IMG/VR virus record: IMGVR_UViG_2534682162_000005
Source of the DNA: a virus
Taxonomy: Duplodnaviria; Heunggongvirae; Uroviricota; Caudoviricetes
Direction: 5' to 3' (one strand)
Length of the DNA stretch: 37,194 nt
The first letter of the stretch is position 1; each line of letters starts with the position of its first letter. Below, piece after piece: positions 3,549 to 32,219 of this stretch. The position numbers and the translations under genes were made by a program. The notes below the pieces were generated by a model that searched no databases, was not told where the DNA came from, and was given only the letters and a program-made list of their open reading frames with translations.

Positions 3549-3848
3549 TCACATCACCCTGAATCCGTTGCATTTACGTAAGAAATCGCAGATATAGCCC
3601 TTCATTTTTTCATGCCAATCTCGATCATTCCCATTGCACCAACCATCAGGTGGAGTCCAGTTTTCTATCAGAGCAGCCATTTTCTTTGCTTTCGCCGGAG
3701 TAGCTGTTGCGGTATCGCAGTAATGACGAGTGTTAACCAACGCATCCATACCATCGATATCAAGTACGCAAAACCATGTGTGATTCGGCATTTCAACAGA
3801 TGGTATTTGTTGCCCACGTCGACGTTTATCAATAAGACATACAGTCAT
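3549..3848 (-). CDS. Hypothetical early-left phage protein, 99 aa
   Basis: Track ORF tightly packed (stop/start adjacency) in the leftward operon; no recognisable motif. Confidence 0.5.
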   Translation of the reverse strand: MTVCLIDKRRRGQQIPSVEMPNHTWFCVLDIDGMDALVNTRHYCDTATATPAKAKKMAALIENWTPPDGWCNGNDRDWHEKMKGYICDFLRKCNGFRVM

Positions 3849-4390
3849 GGTTCCACCTTCTCTATTTGCTTAAGACCGTCTCTCACTGCATTAAGTACGC
3901 GTTCCAGATACTGGTATTTCGGGTTTGGTGCCGTTGGCCAGTCGGCATACCACGGATCATCACCAAAGAGATTCAGCAGTTTGTTACCGACACCGAAACA
4001 ACAGCAGCTTTCTTTTACGTCATCGGCGTTTTCCGCCTCGTCCCACATTTCTCGAGCCTGTACCGCGTCGATTTCTCTCTCTCTTCGTAACTTTATGATT
4101 TCTGACTTCACGAAAAGCAGATTTGCATCGTTGTCATCGTCGACCGTGCTTCGCAGTTGAGGGTCGAAATAGCCGATTAGATACTCGTTGCTGACCCGCT
4201 TAATGAACGTCTGCACATCATCACCGCCCATAGCAAACCAAGCCGCAGTCCACGCTTTTCCGTAGCAGGTGATGGTGATTCTTCCCTTACCAGGTTCGTA
4301 GTTTTCAATCATCACTCGAACCGGATCTAGTCGCTCTGCACCGGTTATAACGAATGACAACACATCAATCTTTTCAACCGTTACACTCAC
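3845..4390 (-). CDS. Hypothetical early-left phage protein, 181 aa
   Basis: Track ORF, 4-nt start/stop overlaps with neighbours typical of a phage operon. Confidence 0.55.
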   Translation of the reverse strand: MSVTVEKIDVLSFVITGAERLDPVRVMIENYEPGKGRITITCYGKAWTAAWFAMGGDDVQTFIKRVSNEYLIGYFDPQLRSTVDDDNDANLLFVKSEIIKLRREREIDAVQAREMWDEAENADDVKESCCCFGVGNKLLNLFGDDPWYADWPTAPNPKYQYLERVLNAVRDGLKQIEKVEP

Positions 4391-8864: not shown

Positions 8865-9164
8865 TCAAATAAGTGGTTTGCTGCCTAATTTCATTTTCTG
8901 GCGACCAACACAAGTCACACCCATTTCACTGCGTGGCTTGCGGTAGTAAATACGATTCTGTTTACGCTCGACTTCTTCTGCCTTCTTGCAGCGAAGGCTT
9001 CCGAGTGATGCTGCTTTATCTGCTCTGACGCAACCAGAGAGCTTTAGCGCAATTTTTCGCGCCAGTCGCTGCTCTTGCATTGCCTGTTCACGTTGAGCCT
9101 GTCTGCGTGCTCTGCGGCGATTTCTGGCGTTATCGTCAGCCAGATATGTAATGACTACTGTCAT
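8865..9164 (-). CDS. N: N-like transcription antiterminator (P22 gene 24-like), 99 aa
   Basis: Track ORF; N-terminus MTVVITYLADDNARNRRRARRQAQREQ is an arginine-rich motif resembling P22 gp24; GGAGG SD; first gene downstream of PL/nutL. Confidence 0.75.
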   Translation of the reverse strand: MTVVITYLADDNARNRRRARRQAQREQAMQEQRLARKIALKLSGCVRADKAASLGSLRCKKAEEVERKQNRIYYRKPRSEMGVTCVGRQKMKLGSKPLI

Positions 9165-10336: not shown

Positions 10337-10402
10337 AGTTAAGACATCTTAAATAAACTTGACTTAAGATTCCTTTAGTGGATAATTTAAGTGTTCTTTA
10401 AT
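10337..10402. promoter_or_regulatory. OR1-OR2-OR3 operators with divergent PRM/PR promoters
   Basis: Three 18-bp sites agttaagacatcttaaat (10337-10354), acttaagattcctttagt (10362-10379), atttaagtgttctttaat (10385-10402); PR -35 TTGACT 10359-10364 and -10 GATAAT/ATAATT around 10381-10387. Confidence 0.75.
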
Positions 10403-10602: not shown

Positions 10603-10608
10603 GCAAAT

Positions 10609-10653
10609 TGCTCTTTAACAGTCATGGTCCTCATTCCCGCCGAAATGCGGGAA
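10609..10653 (+). promoter_or_regulatory. nutR: boxA (TGCTCTTTAACA) and boxB hairpin
   Basis: boxA at 10609-10620 directly after the cro stop; inverted repeat ttcccgc(10634-10640)/gcgggaa(10647-10653) with loop cgaaat. Confidence 0.6.
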
Positions 10654-10710
10654 TACAACGCGCATAAGTTGATGCGCATAACTTCTTATTTGTTAAGGAA
10701 ATACTTACAT

Positions 10711-11185: not shown

Positions 11186-12062
11186 GTTAGCTGATTACAG
11201 GCATAACCCTGTACAACATCAGGAGGCATCCAGTATGGGGTATGTCTCTATACACCGCCAGTTTATGGACAGCAGGCTCTATAAGGACTCTCAGGCAGTA
11301 CATCTTTGGCTTCACTTAATCCTCAAGGCTAATCACGAATCTACTGTCGTCAATACGGATATCGGTCCGATAACTGTTGATCGCGGTCAGATGATAACTG
11401 GACGCCCGTCGCTGGTCAGAGAAACATTCATCCCCGACAACAAAGTTCGGAGCTTATTACGGACTTTTGAGTCGAAAGGGATGCTTAATATTTGCTCGAT
11501 GGGGAAGAAATTTAGCCTGTTTACAATCGTTAAATATGACGATTTTCAGGCAAAAAATTGTCCAACGGTTGTCCAACGGTTGTCCAACGCAAACACCAGT
11601 AATGGCGCGGCTCTCAGCGGAGATTGTCCAACGGTTGTCCAACGGTTGTCCATAAACAATAATATAAATAATATCTCTAATACTGACGTATTAGAGAGTG
11701 CCACAGCAGACAAAAAGTCTGACAAGAAAAAACCTTCCGTTAGCTGTCAGGATGTTGTCGATGCTTACCACGAAATCCTTCCTGAAGCGCCAAGAATCCG
11801 CGCACTGAATGACAAGCGTAAAAACCAGATCCGAACGTTCTGGCGCAAAGCCGGAGTGATAACCCGCCAGCTTGACGGGCATGGGTTCACGATGCAGGAC
11901 TGGAGAAATTATTTGAGCTACGTAGGCGAAAATTGCCGATGGATGTTCGAAGAGCGTCCAAACCATCAACGCGGAACTGTCTGGCACAAAAAGGGATTTG
12001 ATTTCCTGCTTAACGATAATACCTACCTGAAAGTTCGTGAGGGTGAACACGATGACCGATAA
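11172..12062 (+). CDS. Replication initiator (lambda O / P22 gene 18-like), 296 aa, origin inside gene
   Basis: Track ORF; AGGAG SD; position between cII and helicase; iterons and AT-rich tract lie within the coding sequence as in lambda O. Confidence 0.8.
   Translation: MGVVKLADYRHNPVQHQEASSMGYVSIHRQFMDSRLYKDSQAVHLWLHLILKANHESTVVNTDIGPITVDRGQMITGRPSLVRETFIPDNKVRSLLRTFESKGMLNICSMGKKFSLFTIVKYDDFQAKNCPTVVQRLSNANTSNGAALSGDCPTVVQRLSINNNINNISNTDVLESATADKKSDKKKPSVSCQDVVDAYHEILPEAPRIRALNDKRKNQIRTFWRKAGVITRQLDGHGFTMQDWRNYLSYVGENCRWMFEERPNHQRGTVWHKKGFDFLLNDNTYLKVREGEHDDR
11555..11700. repeat. Replication origin: six 11-bp iterons (TTGTCCAACGG) in two triplets plus AT-rich tract
   Basis: ttgtccaacgg at 11558, 11569, 11580 and 11624, 11635, 11646 (last one degenerate), followed by acaataatataaataatatctctaatact. 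Confidence 0.75.
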
Positions 12063-13488
12063 TTTTTATGCGCCGCCCCATAGCATCGAGGCAGAGCAGG
12101 CGGTGATTGGTGGATTGCTTCTGGATGATGACAGCAGTGAGCGCGTCCAGAAAGTTCTGGCGATGCTGAAGCCCGATTCATTTTACAGCCGACCACACAA
12201 AATCCTTTTCGAAGAGATAACCAGAATGCACCGGGAGCAAAAGCCAGTAGATGGCCTGACGCTTTTCGATGAACTGGAGCGTAAATCGTTAACGGCGTCT
12301 GTTGGCGGTTTTGCTTATATCGCTGAGATCGCAAAGAACACGCCAAGCGCCGCAAACATCGTTGCCTATGCAATGCAGGTTCGCGAAACCGCAATGGAAC
12401 GCTACGCCATCAACCGCATGACTGAAGCGACGGAATTGCTCTATTCCCGCAACGGAATGACTGCAACGCAGAAGTACGAAGCTATTCAGGCGATTTTCAC
12501 GCAACTGACAGATCATGCAAAAACCGGATCGCGTCGCGGCCTTCGCTCATTTGGTGAGGTCATGGAAGACTGGGTTAGCGACCTTGAGAAGCGATTTGAC
12601 CCGTCAGGCGAACAACGAGGAATGAGCACAGGGATCCCATCGCTGGACAGGATGCTGTCACCGAAAGGTCTGGTGAAAGGCTCTCTGTTTGTCATTGGCG
12701 CTCGCCCTAAGATGGGGAAAACGACGCTATACAGCCAGATGGCAATCAACTGCGCAGTGCATGAGAAAAAGCCCGCTCTGATGTTCAGCCTTGAAATGCC
12801 CGGTGACCAGATACTGGAAAAACTGGTAGGACAGAAGTCAGGTGTTAACCCGAATATTTTTTACCTTCCGGCGACAAATGACGCTGATGACGGCTATCAG
12901 GGTGATTACGATGGTGACTTCAACAGGGCGATAGAAACAGCAAATCGCTTGAGTGAAATCGACATGCTTTACATCGACGACACGCCGGGATTATCTCTGG
13001 CTCAAATCGTCAGCGAAAGCCGTCGAATCAAGCGAGAAAAAGGATGTGTTGGCATGATTCTGGTCGATTACCTGACACTAATGACCGCTGAGAAGGCCGA
13101 TCGCAACGACCTTGCTTACGGCATGATCACCAAAGGACTGAAGAACCTTGCCAAAGAGCTTGATTGCGTTGTTGTGCTTCTGACGCAGCTTAACCGCGCA
13201 CTGGAAAGCCGAACCAATAAACGCCCATTACCAAGTGACTCACGAGATACAGGGCAGATTGAACAGGATTGCGATTATTGGGTTGGGATCCATCGTGAAG
13301 GCGCTTTTGATGACAGTGTTCCACCTGGTGAAACCGAACTAATCCTTCGTCTCAATCGTCATGGCAATACCGGCACGGTGTATTGCATTCAGGAAAATGG
13401 CGCTATTTATGACACAGACCAACAGTCTGCTGAAATGCGCCGCCGTGAACGCGAGGAACCGCAATCCAAGAAGAAAGGAGGATTCTGA
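12052..13488 (+). CDS. dnaB: DnaB-family replicative helicase (P22 gene 12-like), about 478 aa
   Basis: Track ORF 12037..13488 (GTG); ATG at 12052 (MTDNFYAPPHSIEAEQAVIGGLLLD...) is the DnaB N-terminal signature; Walker A GARPKMGKT. Confidence 0.9.
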   Translation: MTDNFYAPPHSIEAEQAVIGGLLLDDDSSERVQKVLAMLKPDSFYSRPHKILFEEITRMHREQKPVDGLTLFDELERKSLTASVGGFAYIAEIAKNTPSAANIVAYAMQVRETAMERYAINRMTEATELLYSRNGMTATQKYEAIQAIFTQLTDHAKTGSRRGLRSFGEVMEDWVSDLEKRFDPSGEQRGMSTGIPSLDRMLSPKGLVKGSLFVIGARPKMGKTTLYSQMAINCAVHEKKPALMFSLEMPGDQILEKLVGQKSGVNPNIFYLPATNDADDGYQGDYDGDFNRAIETANRLSEIDMLYIDDTPGLSLAQIVSESRRIKREKGCVGMILVDYLTLMTAEKADRNDLAYGMITKGLKNLAKELDCVVVLLTQLNRALESRTNKRPLPSDSRDTGQIEQDCDYWVGIHREGAFDDSVPPGETELILRLNRHGNTGTVYCIQENGAIYDTDQQSAEMRRREREEPQSKKKGGF

Positions 13489-13516
13489 TGACCATCTACA
13501 TCACTGAGCTAATAAC

Positions 13517-13546
13517 AGGCCTGCTGGTAATCGCAGGCCTTTTTAT
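13517..13546 (+). terminator. Rho-independent terminator after the helicase gene (tR2-like)
   Basis: Stem aggcctgc(13517-13524)/gcaggcct(13533-13540), 8-nt loop, then ttttatt. Confidence 0.6.
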
Positions 13547-13563
13547 TTGGGGGAGGGGGAAGT

Positions 13564-13890
13564 GTGGCTGACTGGCAAATTCCAATCATCATTCTTGCCG
13601 GAGCGTCGCTGATTGCTGGCTTTATCCTGCTGAAAAAGCATAAAGACCGTGATCAAAAAGTCGAAGTTCTCTATGGGTATCCAGCGAACAGCACAACATG
13701 GCTGACCATTTACCACTACCGAAAATCAGGCCGCTGGGTATTCGAATGGGATGATCTGTTTGCTGAAAAGCGACCAAAGTCATGGGGAGACATCAGCGAA
13801 TGCATGATGTTTGAAGAAAGAAAATCCGGCGCAACCCGAGAAGAGTTTAACGAAGCGTGGGCGCGATTAAGTGATAGAGGGTATTTGTGA
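13564..13890 (+). CDS. Membrane-anchored hypothetical protein, 108 aa (GTG start)
   Basis: Track ORF; GGAGGGGG SD; N-terminal hydrophobic helix IPIIILAGASLIAGFILL followed by KKHK. Confidence 0.5.
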   Translation: MADWQIPIIILAGASLIAGFILLKKHKDRDQKVEVLYGYPANSTTWLTIYHYRKSGRWVFEWDDLFAEKRPKSWGDISECMMFEERKSGATREEFNEAWARLSDRGYL

Positions 13891-14084
13891 GCAAGTACGA
13901 AAAATTAGATCAAAACATTCTTTCAATGCTGAGTGAAAGACCAACACCTGTTTTTGATATCTGGCTTAAATGGCGGAGCAATGGAATGTATATCGAAACC
14001 ATCGATCGCCGTATGCAATACCTGAGAAAGAAAGGGCTTGTTGCAAATGTGCGTGGGAAGGGTTGGGTGAAAATTAACCTGTAA
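13887..14084 (+). CDS. Small hypothetical protein, 65 aa (possible winged-helix)
   Basis: Track ORF; GTG start overlapping the upstream stop; AGAGGG SD. Confidence 0.45.
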   Translation: MSKYEKLDQNILSMLSERPTPVFDIWLKWRSNGMYIETIDRRMQYLRKKGLVANVRGKGWVKINL

Positions 14085-14098
14085 TAACGGGGATTGAT

Positions 14099-14365
14099 AT
14101 GGACGAATCAAGAAAGCAGTTTGAAGAATGGTTTGAAAATTACACCGGATGTGATCCTAAAAATAAAATATACGCCAATATGGTTGAGATGTATTGGCAA
14201 GCGTGGCAGGCATCGCGAGCAGCTATCGAGATTGAGTGTCCTGGAAAAAGAGAGCGTGAGGCATTTTCTACCGATTTCGAGGATGGGGTCACATTTGGTT
14301 ATAACGACGCAATTAGTGAATGCGAAGGACGGATTCGCGCTGCTGGAGTCAAAGTGAAGGAGTAA
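14099..14365 (+). CDS. Hypothetical nin-region protein, 88 aa
   Basis: Track ORF with ATG start; compact operon spacing. Confidence 0.5.
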   Translation: MDESRKQFEEWFENYTGCDPKNKIYANMVEMYWQAWQASRAAIEIECPGKREREAFSTDFEDGVTFGYNDAISECEGRIRAAGVKVKE

Positions 14366-15313: not shown

Positions 15314-15489
15314 TGCTTAGCCCATCCCAATCCCTTCAATACCAGAAAGAAAGCGTCGAGCGGGCTTTAACGTGCGCTAACTGCGGTCAGAAGCTGCATG
15401 TGCTGGAAGTTCACGTGTGTGAGCACTGCTGCGCAGAACTGATGAGCGATCCGAATAGCTCAATGTACGAGGAAGAAGACGATGAATGA
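15313..15489 (+). CDS. ninF: NinF-like protein, 58 aa (Cys-rich)
   Basis: Hand-read [40 protein letters not shown]...; TAATG overlap with the upstream stop; resembles lambda NinF. Confidence 0.65.
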   Translation: MLSPSQSLQYQKESVERALTCANCGQKLHVLEVHVCEHCCAELMSDPNSSMYEEEDDE

Positions 15490-16204
15490 GTTAATAAATG
15501 GCAATGCCATCAAAATGACAAGCATTGAAATCGCTGAGTTGGTTGGTAAGCGTCATGACAATGTGAAACGTACCATCGAAACGCTGGCTAAAAATGGTGT
15601 TATCCGGCTTCCTCAAATTGAGGTTTCCGAAAGAATCAATAACTTAGGGTTCAATGTTCAGTACGAGCATTACGTCTTCGAAGGCGAACAAGGTAAGCGA
15701 GATAGTATTGTTGTTGTTGCCCAGTTGTCGCCAGAGTTCACCGCTCGCCTTGTTGACCGCTGGCGAGAGCTTGAAGAAGCTGCGGTTAATATCCCAAAAA
15801 CGCTACCGGAAGCGTTGCGCCTTGCTGCTGATCTTGCTGAGCAGAAAATGCAACTGGAAAACCAGCTCGCAATTGCCGCACCTAAAGTTGAGTTTGCCGA
15901 TCGCGTTGGCGAGGCCAGCGGAATTTTGATTGGAAACTTTGCAAAGGTTGTTGGTATTGGTCCAAACAAACTGTTTGCGTGGATGCGCGATCACAAAATC
16001 CTTATTGCTTCAGGTTCCCGGCGCAATGTGCCAATGCAGGAATATATGGATCGCGGCTATTTCACAGTGAAAGAAACAGCGGTCAACACAAATCACGGAA
16101 TACAGATATCGTTCACCACAAAAATCACCGGGCGTGGTCAACAGTGGCTGACCAGAAAGCTGCTCGATAACGGAATGCTGAAAGTAACAGGGGAGGCTGC
16201 TTAA
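15482..16204 (+). CDS. Rha-family regulatory protein with C-terminal KilAC (antirepressor-type) domain, 240 aa
   Basis: Track ORF; N-terminal region MTSIEIAELVGKRHDNVKRTIETL is Rha-like and the C-terminal half looks like a KilA-C/ANT domain. Confidence 0.65.
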   Translation: MNELINGNAIKMTSIEIAELVGKRHDNVKRTIETLAKNGVIRLPQIEVSERINNLGFNVQYEHYVFEGEQGKRDSIVVVAQLSPEFTARLVDRWRELEEAAVNIPKTLPEALRLAADLAEQKMQLENQLAIAAPKVEFADRVGEASGILIGNFAKVVGIGPNKLFAWMRDHKILIASGSRRNVPMQEYMDRGYFTVKETAVNTNHGIQISFTTKITGRGQQWLTRKLLDNGMLKVTGEAA

Positions 16205-30222: not shown

Positions 30223-30921
30223 ATGTTATATGCATTTAAGCTGGGCAGAAAACTGCGCGGCGAGGAACCTTATTGCCCTGAAAAAGGCGGGAAAGGTGGC
30301 AGCTCTGATAAAAGCGCAAAGTATGCAGCAGAAGCTCAGAAGTATGCCGCAGACCTGCAAAATCAGCAGTGGCAGACGATCATGAAAAACCTTGCTCCGT
30401 TCACGCCTCTTGCGGAGCAGTATGTTAACCAGCTTCAGAACCTTTCCAGTTTAGAAGGTCAGGGGCAGGCACTTAATCAGTATTACAACTCTCAGCAGTA
30501 TAAAGACCTTGCAGGTCAGGCTCGTTACCAGAGTCTTGCTGCTGCGGAGGCTACGGGAGGACTTGGTTCGACAGCCACAAGCAATCAACTGGCTACGATC
30601 GCGCCGACTCTCGGTCAGTCTTGGTTATCAAACCAGATGAGCAATTACAACAATCTGGCAAACGTTGGGCTTGGTGCTCTGCAAGGTCAGGCAAACGCCG
30701 GGCAGACGTACGCCAACAACATGAGCAGCATTGCACAGCAAAGCGCAGCTCTTTCCGCTGCTAATGCCAACAAACCATCAAGTCTTCAGACAGCAATTAG
30801 TGGCGGAACGTCTGGTGCGATTGCCGGTGCAGGTCTTGCCAGCCTTTTGGAAACATCAACACCTTGGGGCGCTGGCATTGGTGCTGGTATCGGATTGCTT
30901 GGTTCGTTGTTTAAGGGGTAA
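30223..30921 (+). CDS. Ejection protein (P22 gp7-like), 232 aa
   Basis: Track ORF; Q/A/G-rich low-complexity protein in the gp7 position. Confidence 0.75.
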   Translation: MLYAFKLGRKLRGEEPYCPEKGGKGGSSDKSAKYAAEAQKYAADLQNQQWQTIMKNLAPFTPLAEQYVNQLQNLSSLEGQGQALNQYYNSQQYKDLAGQARYQSLAAAEATGGLGSTATSNQLATIAPTLGQSWLSNQMSNYNNLANVGLGALQGQANAGQTYANNMSSIAQQSAALSAANANKPSSLQTAISGGTSGAIAGAGLASLLETSTPWGAGIGAGIGLLGSLFKG

Positions 30922-30923
30922 TC

Positions 30924-32219
30924 ATGGCTACTTGGCAAGGATCAAATGGCGGATTGTTGGCTGGTATCGGCGGCGTCAACTCAAACGCTCCGAGCGTAAA
31001 TGACATCGGCAATACGCTTCAGCTTATCAGGCAGAACAATGATATTGAGCGTTCAGGCGCTAACAATGTTGGGCTGACTGCTTTGCAAGGCCTTTCAGGC
31101 ATTGCGGGGGTGTTTCAGCAGGAAAAGCAGGCTCAGAGGCAGAAAGAATTTCAGCAGGCATACGCTAATGCTTATGCGTCTGGTGATCGCGGTGCTTTGC
31201 GTCAGTTGGCTACTCAATATCCAGACCAGATTGAATCTGTTCGTAAAGGCATGGGATTCATTGATGAAGACCAGCGCAATTCTATCGGCACCTTAGCGGC
31301 TGGCGCACGCCTTGCGGCCTCGTCTCCAGAAGCAATGCAATCATGGCTGCAAAACAACGCCAATGAGCTGGCGCGCGTCGGTGTTGACCCTAATAACGTT
31401 GCTCAGATGTATCAGCAGAATCCTTCAGGATTTGGTGAGTTTGTTGATCACCTTGGGATGGCTGCTCTTGGTCCTATTGATTACTTCAATGTTCAGGACA
31501 AGATGGCAGGTCGTGAGATTGACCGAGGCAGGCTGGCAGAGACAATCCGCAGCAATCAGGCCGGAGAAGCACTAACAGCTCGAGGTCAGGACATCCAGAT
31601 ACGTGGACAGAACATCAGCGCACAGAATGCTGCTCTTTCCCGAGAAATACAAAGAGCAGAATTACAAGAAAAGGCTCTGGACAGACAGATAGCCAGAGAA
31701 AGCAATCAGTTAAAGCTTGAAGAGCTAAAACAGAAACAGGCAGATGTTCGGAAAAAGGCTGACATAGCCCGCGCTGACAGGCAGGCCGCCGCTCAGGGGG
31801 CAGTTGATACGTTCAGCACCGCGCTTGATTCTCTCAACGAGATAGAGCAAAGCCCCGGCCTTTCAAAAGCAGTAGGAATTCGCTCAGCGTTTCCGACAGT
31901 TCCTGGCTCTGATGCGGCTAACTTTGAAGCAAGGCTCGACACCTTTAAAGCTCAAACATTCCTTCCTATGGTGCAGTCCCTGAAGGGTATGGGCGCTCTT
32001 TCAGATGCTGAGGGTAAAAAATTATCCGATGCGGTTGGTGCCCTAAGCCCCAAAATGAGTGAAAAGGCTTTTCGTGACTCTATCGGAAAGATTAGAAATC
32101 AGCTTGAAAGCAAGTTGAGCACTGTTAAAAAACAGTTTGATTATCAGGAGCCGGTTCAGAATATGCCAGGGAAACAATCTACTACTGGCAGTAACTTTTC
32201 TTCACTATGGGGTGATTAA
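30924..32219 (+). CDS. Ejection protein (P22 gp20-like), 431 aa
   Basis: Track ORF; position after gp7; Q/A-rich composition. Confidence 0.75.
   Translation: MATWQGSNGGLLAGIGGVNSNAPSVNDIGNTLQLIRQNNDIERSGANNVGLTALQGLSGIAGVFQQEKQAQRQKEFQQAYANAYASGDRGALRQLATQYPDQIESVRKGMGFIDEDQRNSIGTLAAGARLAASSPEAMQSWLQNNANELARVGVDPNNVAQMYQQNPSGFGEFVDHLGMAALGPIDYFNVQDKMAGREIDRGRLAETIRSNQAGEALTARGQDIQIRGQNISAQNAALSREIQRAELQEKALDRQIARESNQLKLEELKQKQADVRKKADIARADRQAAAQGAVDTFSTALDSLNEIEQSPGLSKAVGIRSAFPTVPGSDAANFEARLDTFKAQTFLPMVQSLKGMGALSDAEGKKLSDAVGALSPKMSEKAFRDSIGKIRNQLESKLSTVKKQFDYQEPVQNMPGKQSTTGSNFSSLWGD

Follow-up and report, generated by a model that had tools for sequence, protein, structure and literature searches.

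The 27-codon open reading frame that begins at the stop codon of a DnaB-like helicase gene in this viral DNA is ninA and, judged from its sequence context, appears to be a translated bridge by which ribosomes cross an antitermination-gated terminator, tR2. It lies in a window of 37,194 nucleotides (the whole stretch of DNA analysed, in which all positions are counted). The part of the window considered here very likely belongs to a lambdoid prophage of the Sf6/P22-like kind and covers the beginning of its nin region, namely the ninA/tR2 junction followed by two accessory genes, gp46 and gp47. The locus is an ordinary one that is already annotated, and the ninA/tR2 element has been known since 1982.

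At the DNA level, the region matches positions 30268-30938 of Shigella phage Sf6 with 98.2% identity over 671 bp, and the corresponding Sf6 annotation runs gene 44, gene 45 ('similar to phage 21 NinA'), bsq6, tR2, gene 46, and gene 47. The annotations of HK620 and phage L mark ninA and tR2 likewise. A profile match to phrog_5907 (E = 1.8e-19), these annotations, and the lambda sequence together bear out an earlier suggestion, made from the letters of the window, that this is the position of ren and ninA in lambda. Operon neighbours that we could identify encode an N-like protein, a repressor, Cro, CII, an O-like protein, the helicase, NinB, NinE, NinX, and Q, with a promoter-like site for PR at 10359-10386. 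After cro, a boxA-like sequence and a hairpin were read by eye. On the plus strand between 11663 and 17701, a scan found no promoter-like site; because the consensus used was strict, a weak promoter for gp46 and gp47 could have escaped it. The features are listed in Table 1.

Table 1. Positions of the features at the start of the nin region (window coordinates)
Feature	Position	Strand	Description
DnaB-like replicative helicase	12037..13488	+	Pfam DnaB_C 2.5e-60, DnaB 3.4e-31; equivalent to Sf6 gene 44
Shine-Dalgarno AGGAGG for ninA	13476..13481	+	6 nt before the ATG, within the 3' end of the helicase gene; SD:anti-SD duplex -11.6 kcal/mol
ninA, 27-codon ORF (Sf6 gene 45; lambda/P22/HK620 ninA; phrog_5907)	13488..13571	+	one hydrophobic helix, basic C-terminal tail
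Conserved 70-bp cassette (Casjens' 'bsq6 boundary sequence')	13488..13557		begins at the ninA ATG, finishes in a G-rich ribosome-binding site
Intrinsic terminator tR2	13517..13548	+	wholly within ninA; 8-bp GC-rich stem, 8-nt loop, T tract
GGAGG ribosome-binding site of the next gene	13552..13556	+	inside the ninA 3' end; spaced 7 nt from the GTG at 13564
gp46, 108 aa (Sf6 gp46, phrog_5903)	13564..13890	+	GTG start, overlaps the ninA stop by 8 nt
gp47, 65 aa (Sf6 gp47, phrog_7185)	13887..14084	+	stand-alone winged helix-turn-helix; start overlaps the gp46 stop (GTGA, 4 nt)

The sequence-only reading had placed a hydrophobic mini-ORF at 13488-13571, opening at the helicase stop with AGGAGG 6 nt before its ATG, and each of these positions held. 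The helicase TGA occupies 13486-13488 and shares its last base with the ninA ATG (TGATG). The ninA product, MTIYITELITGLLVIAGLFIWGRGKCG, reaches 2.04 in its best 19-residue Kyte-Doolittle window. The terminator within it is built from stem AGGCCTGC (13517-13524), the loop, stem GCAGGCCT (13533-13540), and then TTTTATTT (13541-13548), and the stem-loop with short flanking pairs has a folding energy of -16.8 kcal/mol. A strong hairpin had been noted at 13517-13546; the hairpin was correct but its end was not, as the stem closes at 13540 and the T tract continues to 13548. Its reported overlap with the mini-ORF also stands, and is complete. The sequence equals that of lambda tR2 and is so annotated in Sf6 and HK620. 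Beyond the hairpin, the G-rich tail of the cassette recurs ahead of every alternative downstream gene, and here the ninA stop and the gp46 start overlap in GTGGCTGA.

The cassette has sharp boundaries and is widespread. Across 71 distinct flank combinations, the majority-base fraction is 0.95-0.99 inside it versus about 0.5 in either flank, and conservation sets in exactly at the ninA ATG, 29 nt upstream of the hairpin. We found the cassette in phages (406 records by DNA, 421 by tblastn) and in 2000 of the 5426 complete E. coli genomes searched, within prophage early operons; the E. coli copies number roughly 2900. In lambda, the same sequence sits between ren and ninB with an ATGA overlap at each end, and there are 2 differences from the window in the first 75 nt of the cassette region. 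Viral contigs were scanned with a 14-nt anchor, which gave many chance matches that a similarity filter removed. A separate search of assembled genome contigs for the ninA 5' pattern gave 22 matches, most of which look like lambda contamination in assemblies that have nothing to do with the phage.

What surrounds the cassette changes, but the translational signals at its two ends persist. In seven unrelated upstream contexts, with helicase, ren, and the P gene among the partners coupled stop-to-start to ninA, the upstream stop always overlaps or abuts the ninA ATG and a Shine-Dalgarno sequence is always present (7/7; duplex -5.9 to -11.6 kcal/mol versus a background of -2.0, Mann-Whitney p = 8e-6). 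Nearly all downstream contexts have a next-gene start that overlaps or abuts the ninA stop, as ATGA, GTGA, GTGGCTGA, or TAAATG. We sampled 142 elements, of which 139 begin at the ninA ATG, and all 139 keep an open frame of 24-32 codons. As to activity, a reporter study of the lambda tR2 fragment (PMC4824070) describes the ninA initiation site as 'not weak' and reports that mutating the ninA ribosome-binding site or AUG restored expression of the upstream reporter. A ribosome-binding site and stop overlap supplied by each of seven upstream genes, an open frame, an overlapping start for the next gene, and a start that is 'not weak' together make ninA look like a translated link. We infer that this coupling is the selected function.

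The strongest alternative, though one we consider quite unlikely, is that the frame is an accident within a conserved non-coding element made of tR2, the 'boundary sequence', and the next ribosome-binding site, with any translation being noise and the hydrophobicity being only what a T tract and a GC stem happen to encode in this frame (Leu, Phe, Ile, Val, Ala, and Gly). Nucleotides 30-70, most of ninA, are indeed hairpin, T tract, and Shine-Dalgarno sequence, and three copies have an HNH gene between the ninA 5' half and tR2. Codon variation is of limited help. Outside the hairpin, at ninA nucleotides 4-29, 8 variants are synonymous and 4 non-synonymous, against 18 and 60 possible (p = 5e-4), but one antisense frame that shares the wobble positions is equally significant (p = 3e-4), so we take this test as supporting evidence only and not as proof of sense coding. 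The antisense ORF does not extend over ninA nucleotides 4-11. Several copies have Gln in place of Leu midway along the hydrophobic segment, in the hairpin loop, which disfavours tight constraint on the NinA peptide. The region is also dispensable: lambda with the nin5 deletion and P22 with a deletion from ninA through ninH are both viable, so nothing in it is essential. Finally, NCBI's PGAP does not call ninA in the E. coli annotations inspected, which fits an accidental frame but also means that pipelines of this type leave a conserved, probably translated 27-codon ORF out of those annotations.

Against an accidental frame, a purely transcriptional element would have no need of well-spaced Shine-Dalgarno sequences and overlapping or abutting stops in seven unrelated upstream genes, nor of conservation that begins at the ATG rather than at the hairpin. 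The frame remains open in every ATG-bearing copy and also in an allele with a different hairpin (HK97 gp56-type), and the PA28-type allele retains a hydrophobic tail in the lack of a GC-rich hairpin. The ninA start, moreover, is reported as active in the reporter study (PMC4824070). The sequence-only reading had allowed that the mini-ORF might be a coincidence; a conserved unit with an SD in each of its upstream contexts speaks against this.

Whether the peptide matters beyond bridging is a separate question from whether ninA is a translated link. By sequence, NinA appears to be a single-pass hydrophobic micro-protein of 24-34 aa with some sign of purifying selection. In its first ten codons variation is almost only synonymous, while its C-termini occur as three unrelated alleles, all hydrophobic, of which one is without a GC-rich terminator hairpin. 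It is possible, though we think it doubtful, that NinA is itself selected as a membrane micro-protein. Since tR2 lies within the ORF, full-length NinA would come only from antiterminated transcripts, and if NinA were so selected it would serve as an intrinsic reporter, or an effector, of the delayed-early switch. Single-base changes in the G run would produce a NinA-gp46 fusion, a two-helix membrane protein, and rare variants of this kind were seen.

The ninA/tR2 elements of lambda, P22, HK620, and Sf6 are the same element as that in the window, with the same hairpin and T tract, a position directly after the replication or ren gene, and stop-start overlaps on both sides. Relative to lambda ninA, the first 25 residues are identical and the last two codons alone differ (…KCG here, …KS in lambda), because the downstream neighbour here is gp46 and not ninB; upstream, a DnaB-type helicase takes the place of ren. 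The allele represented by HK97 gp56 and HK544 gp48 shares the first 10 codons, the position, the coupling, a terminator-like hairpin and T tract inside the ORF, and a hydrophobic tail, but has a different stem (GGGCTA…TAGCCC), 32 codons, and another C-terminus. Leader-peptide attenuators such as trpL and the pyrBI leader likewise place a short translated ORF by an intrinsic terminator, where ribosome position could affect termination; unlike them, ninA holds the hairpin within its frame, has no alternative antiterminator pairing, and is presumably under N-type antitermination control. We also considered translation of ninA as a strong attenuator of tR2 and dropped the idea, because translation of ninA on the lambda fragment lowered tR2 termination by only about 10% in the published work (PMC4824070).

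Lambda is said to have been described by Kroger and Hobom in 1982 as carrying a 'chain of interlinked genes'. We propose that ninA would be the first link of such a lambda-type chain, a portable 70-bp junction with tR2 inside a short translated ORF. RNA polymerase initiated at PR would halt at tR2 unless modified at nutR by an N-like antiterminator, a step that is established lambda biology and that we infer for the present phage. This gating would make the nin genes and Q delayed-early. On read-through transcripts, ribosomes ending the replication gene would re-initiate at the ninA ATG, aided by the stop/start overlap and by the Shine-Dalgarno sequence that each upstream gene provides. They would then translate the hairpin sequence and reach the ninA stop right at the following gene's start codon; the GGAGG Shine-Dalgarno sequence of that gene lies in the ninA 3' end. 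In this way, the accessory genes downstream would stay translationally coupled, whatever genes recombination puts on either side. Transcripts ending at tR2 would hold ninA without a stop codon, and a published reporter study indicates that trans-translation would clear non-stop messages of this kind.

The two genes that follow ninA are near-identical orthologues of Sf6 gp46 and gp47, in the same order and with no notable difference. The expected 108-aa protein with one N-terminal transmembrane helix is borne out for gp46 by a structure model with a helix at residues 5-27 (best 19-residue Kyte-Doolittle window 2.3). The remainder is modelled as a small strand-rich domain with a C-terminal helix at its end, and a fold search with the structure model matched no known fold; this membrane-anchored domain probably faces the cytoplasm. 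A PDB profile search gave no match for gp46, and its Pfam matches, FG-GAP_3 and DUF2627, were far under the cut-off. The gp46 profile also matches 14 stretches of one 3904-aa protein, perhaps through a repeat-like beta-hairpin resemblance.

For gp47, the sequence-only reading had proposed a coupled 65-aa protein, possibly DNA-binding, and both parts agree with what we found. The model (pLDDT 93.5) consists of three helices and a beta-hairpin wing (H3-14, H22-26, H36-48, E52-55, E59-62), and Foldseek aligned it to the winged-helix domains of CymR, GabR, RsrR, and BirA with TM-scores of 0.65-0.76 and a probability of about 1, the top families being CymR/Rrf2, GabR/GntR, and BirA. It is not a member of a curated HTH family (best Pfam match HTH_Crp_2, E = 0.067, 13.6 bits versus a cut-off of 27), and its best match in a PDB profile search was an Rrf2 protein with E = 0.61. 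With a net charge of +7 and a basic third helix (RRMQYLRKK), gp47 is modelled as a basic winged helix that probably binds nucleic acid. Kinship of gp46 or gp47 with lambda Ren was considered and discarded, as hhalign gave probabilities of 1.3% and 0.1%, respectively. In the literature, the accessions of gp45-47 or their RefSeq equivalents were found in no paper.

A membrane protein next to a small regulator had suggested a superinfection-exclusion or abortive-infection pair, which we regard as improbable. In its favour, the two reading frames share 4 nt, and the copies in E. coli and Shigella carry both genes, among them 63 E. coli genomes with the full stretch; both proteins are without known function (phrog_5903 and phrog_7185); and membrane proteins are common in exclusion systems. 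However, among PADLOC models gp46 and ninA had no match, and gp47 had only a sub-threshold one, to a CARF model (E = 0.035). The comparison of syntenic loci that had been proposed showed that the pair is not fixed: gp47 is absent from 18 of the 29 loci with a gp46 homologue, including all 11 loci of three distant gp46 clusters, while gp47 homologues at 65-71% identity have other neighbours, including recT, and the distant ones examined are without gp46. As a family, gp46 is very small (37 clusters at 50% identity) and shows no informative domain fusions. Its relatives include one in a record named myovirus vB_EcoM_Goslar, which we take to be a virulent jumbo phage, and another that adjoins a DNA polymerase A gene.

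Operon position argues in the same direction. Both genes lie after tR2, and the strict consensus scan found no promoter-like site for them; silence in a lysogen is therefore expected, and from their position they would be expressed in lytic growth rather than from the repressed prophage. Lambda RexAB and P22 SieA/SieB resemble gp46 in including a membrane protein from a lambdoid prophage, and their expression in the lysogen comes from immunity promoters or promoters of their own; unlike them, gp46 and gp47 are an unfixed pair in a presumably N-dependent delayed-early operon. Both belong to nin-region families that have no defence association, and there is nothing to suggest that either acts in defence. 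We conclude that gp46 and gp47 are independently shuffling, non-essential nin-region accessory genes.

The least credible of the readings takes the mini-ORF for a membrane peptide of the type I toxin kind, restrained by the hairpin or an antisense RNA. With 27 aa, one hydrophobic helix, and a basic tail, it does resemble TisB, ShoB, and Ibs in length and make-up, and Ldr and Hok in general form, but it is the ninA of lambda, P22, and Sf6, without homology to these toxins, chained inside the early-right operon with a start coupled to the upstream stop in every context and with neither a promoter nor a long 5' UTR of its own. A consensus scan of the minus strand near 13400-14200 found no promoter-like site for an antisense RNA, and Rfam gave no family match at E <= 1. 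The cassette is, furthermore, part of prophage early operons in more than a third of the complete E. coli genomes, and the portion of the reporter study available makes no mention of toxicity from a plasmid-borne copy under an active promoter (PMC4824070).

The element is annotated in Sf6, P22, HK620, HK97, and phage L, and outside the tidying of annotations the significance of these results is slight. Within it, a 70-bp block with sharp edges, overlaps of stop and start at either end, and ribosome-binding sites provided independently in seven upstream contexts make a cheap and clear case for selected translation. They support the cassette as a portable junction, in which tR2 control and translational coupling would be kept while lambdoid phages swap the genes that flank it.

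The window is a P22-like lambdoid prophage, and 671 bp around the mini-ORF are 98.2% identical to Shigella phage Sf6. Along the matching stretch, the Sf6 record lists gene 44 (helicase), gene 45 ('similar to phage 21 NinA'), gene 46 and gene 47, and also marks a misc_feature, 'bsq6; boundary sequence', and a terminator, 'tR2, homology to phage lambda'. The same ORF is named ninA in the records of HK620 and phage L, with tR2 inside it, and it matches phrog_5907 (E = 1.8e-19). In lambda, where the same sequence lies between ren and ninB, there is an ATGA overlap at each end; the first 75 bases of the lambda copy differ from the window ninA at two positions, and residues 1-25 are identical. The ninA/tR2 element is already known and annotated, and every feature described here by the sequence-only reading is real: the helicase end, the AGGAGG, the mini-ORF, the terminator, and the 108-aa and 65-aa ORFs, named gp46 and gp47 after Sf6. 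A DNA search found the 70-bp conserved block corresponding to bsq6 in 406 phage records and tblastn found it in 421, with lambda, P22, 933W and many Stx phages among them. Of 5426 complete E. coli genomes, 2000 carry the block, and the full ninA-gp46-gp47 stretch is present in just 63 of these. Low-coverage contigs, several of ~48.4-48.5 kb (L128, L130, L137, L138, L146 and others), also match the ninA 5' pattern exactly. These come from GTDB representative assemblies of Pseudomonas, Shewanella, Oceanobacillus, Neobacillus, Bradyrhizobium, Nocardioides and others, and are almost certainly contaminating phage lambda control DNA.

Features of the ninA/tR2 stretch, its operon and related loci (window coordinates unless a compared sequence record, L, is named; SD, Shine-Dalgarno sequence)
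Feature	Position	Observation
N-like ORF	8865-9164, minus strand	
boxA-like sequence and hairpin	10606-10660	after cro
11-bp repeat clusters	11546-11663	within O-like gene
DnaB-like helicase ORF	end 13488	Pfam DnaB and DnaB_C
AGGAGG (SD of ninA)	13476-13481	sequence
ninA ATG	13488	A common to helicase TGA
Mini-ORF, 27 codons	to 13571	product MTIYITELITGLLVIAGLFIWGRGKCG
Terminator in mini-ORF	13517-13524 / 13533-13540	8-bp GC-rich stem, 8-nt loop, then TTTTATTT; -16.8 kcal/mol by folding, with short flanking pairs
G run	13549-13563	TTTGGGGGAGGGGGAAGT
108-aa ORF (gp46)	GTG start 13564	eight bases ahead of mini-ORF end
65-aa ORF (gp47)	GTG start 13887	within GTGA closing 108-aa ORF
KilAC/Rha antirepressor-type gene	15482-16204	
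HK544 ninA allele	L227 701-799	
HNH-in-ninA	phage PA28 (L229) 9-113 and 91-702	also L013, L087
phrog_1165 68-aa gene	L006 1325-1531; HK620 (L002) 1632-1839	unannotated in HK620 record
Uncalled ORF, ~55 aa	L223 ~3729-3897	Enterobacter hormaechei prophage

The mini-ORF could be a chance open frame in a terminator or a translated ORF. IMG/VR contigs and fetched records together yielded 142 copies of the element, located with anchors that fix nt 1-14 or 46-66 and leave the remaining positions free. Across 71 distinct flank combinations, the majority-base fraction was 0.95-0.99 from nt 1 (the ATG) to ~nt 70 and ~0.5 on either side, a sharply edged block of conservation. In all 139 copies that start at the ninA ATG, the frame stays open for 24-32 codons. 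The sequences upstream of ninA sort into seven families unrelated to one another, among them the 3' ends of ren and of DnaB-type helicase genes; in each of the seven, the stop codon ahead of ninA overlaps the ninA ATG or directly adjoins it (ATGA, TGATG or TAAATG). Each also has an SD 7-12 nt upstream of ninA, with duplex energies of -5.9 to -11.6 kcal/mol, where the background averages -2.0 kcal/mol (Mann-Whitney p = 8e-6). The gene 3' of ninA varies: it may be ninB, gp46 or the gene of a 68-aa membrane protein with two helices, among others. Almost always the next start overlaps the ninA stop or directly adjoins it (ATGA, GTGA, GTGGCTGA or TAAATG), and the SD of the downstream gene is the G-rich ninA tail. 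Both ends of ninA are built for coupling. The 68-aa protein (phrog_1165, two hydrophobic segments) is a frequent alternative first gene after ninA, with the same GTGGCTGA overlap as gp46, and small membrane proteins seem common directly after tR2.

In the 26 nt before the hairpin, variants were 8 synonymous to 4 non-synonymous, versus 18 to 60 possible (p = 5e-4), and the other two sense frames had no synonymous bias in this test. One antisense frame with shared wobble positions scores equally (p = 3e-4), and the synonymous test alone is not decisive for sense coding of ninA. The antisense ORF in the window begins within gp46 and ends short of two synonymous sites; it is unlikely to be real, since it misses those sites and other contexts have different genes in place of gp46.

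A published reporter study of a lambda tR2 fragment (PMC4824070) describes the ninA initiation site as 'not weak' and reports that upstream reporter expression is regained on silencing the ninA RBS or AUG, and that translation lowers termination by only about 10%. Its authors suggest that tR2-ended transcripts are non-stop messages, handled by trans-translation. The best reading of ninA/tR2 is as a portable junction, at which ribosomes would pass from the replication gene via ninA to the next gene. Transcription beyond tR2 would require antitermination, as established for lambda and presumed for the window phage. We infer that coupling is the selected function of ninA/tR2. The suggestion that the mini-ORF is a type I toxin-like peptide fails on defining features: we found no antisense promoter-like site and no RNA-family match, and the mini-ORF has neither its own promoter nor its own UTR.

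The element also occurs as other alleles. The HK97 gp56/HK544 type shares the first ten codons of ninA; its hairpin differs (GGGCTA…TAGCCC followed by a T tract, -14.8 kcal/mol), its tail is again hydrophobic, and its 32-aa product matches phrog_5907. In PA28-type Stx phages, ninA is interrupted after about codon 10 by an HNH endonuclease gene; the 5' half of ninA continues into a different hydrophobic tail (MTIYITELIAGLSLLMVLTVYIIKYILYANKKTN, 34 aa in total) without a GC-rich hairpin and overlaps the HNH start, and tR2 and the G-rich tail come after the HNH stop. Rare 133-137-aa variants (proteins P0003-P0013) have NinA fused in frame to gp46 (for example, …LFIWGEGSVADWQ…), with apparent single-base changes in the G run. 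Each fusion is a single-member cluster, one on 14 contigs and another on 5; homopolymer sequencing errors could account for them, or they may be genuine fusion proteins with two helices.

A search of 5.8 billion proteins gave 58 clusters for the gp46 family (phrog_5903), and one of 1.84 billion representatives gave 37 at 50% identity, almost all of them 73-133 aa long and with no informative fusions. Its N-terminal hydrophobic segment is variable and its core strongly conserved (KV.VLYGYP….TWLTIYH.R…W.FEWDDLF..GRP). Basic residues after the membrane helix (KKHKDRDQK) suggest that the domain would lie on the cytoplasmic side. The only relatives that Foldseek returned from viral models are uncharacterised proteins at 34-36% identity, whose records bear the names Escherichia phage vB_EcoM_Goslar and Salmonella phage IME207. 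Homologues of gp46 always lie directly after replication genes: lambda P, DnaB, an IstB/DnaA-type ATPase, a Toprim/AAA_25 protein or DNA polymerase A. In the model of gp47 (phrog_7185; pLDDT 93.5), a bundle of three helices carries a beta-hairpin wing; it is best matched by the winged-helix domains of CymR/Rrf2, GabR/GntR, RsrR and BirA (TM-score 0.65-0.76, probability ~1, but E ~0.02). Sequence matches of gp47 to curated HTH families were all below threshold, and its net charge is +7. Neither protein showed a relationship to lambda Ren.

The pattern of a membrane protein with a small regulator had pointed to a possible exclusion or abortive-infection module. However, gp46 and gp47 are not a module: gp47 is absent from 18 of the 29 loci with a gp46 homologue, among them every one of the 11 that represent three distant gp46 clusters, as well as several near-identical copies, and gp47 homologues at 65-71% identity follow other genes, one adjoining recT, with no gp46 nearby. 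Neither protein matches a PADLOC model, and a strict-consensus scan of the plus strand from the O-like gene to Q found no promoter-like site. The evidence supports neither the defence nor the toxin reading. In one E. hormaechei prophage, an uncalled ORF with two hydrophobic segments sits in a 230-nt gap after a gp47-like gene.

The operon around ninA is typical of lambdoid phages and includes an N-like protein, repressor, Cro and CII. The N-like ORF matches the N peptide family only weakly, below the cut-off, and by our own reading of the sequence a boxA-like element (TGCTCTTTAAC) is accompanied by a hairpin (TTCCCGC…GCGGGAA); these are likely the antiterminator and nutR that let polymerase pass tR2. 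The O-like replication gene holds an 11-bp repeat, TTGTCCAACGG, in two clusters of three overlapping copies each, 66 bp apart; this looks like the phage origin, and the Sf6 rep_origin is annotated at the matching place. From the helicase, the gene order is ninA/tR2, gp46, gp47, a phrog_343 protein, NinB, NinE, NinX, a KilAC/Rha protein, YbcO and Q, so that an antirepressor-type gene lies in the nin region with ninX and ybcO on either side.

The nin5 deletion takes out ren-ninA through ninI, and a P22 lysogen with a ninA-ninH deletion has been built and used; the nin region is therefore dispensable in the laboratory. Evolved Sf6 nin-region deletion mutants keep a predicted terminator. Small proteins such as NinA, gp46 and gp47, encoded in a region that is dispensable and highly mosaic, are ordinary for lambdoid phages.
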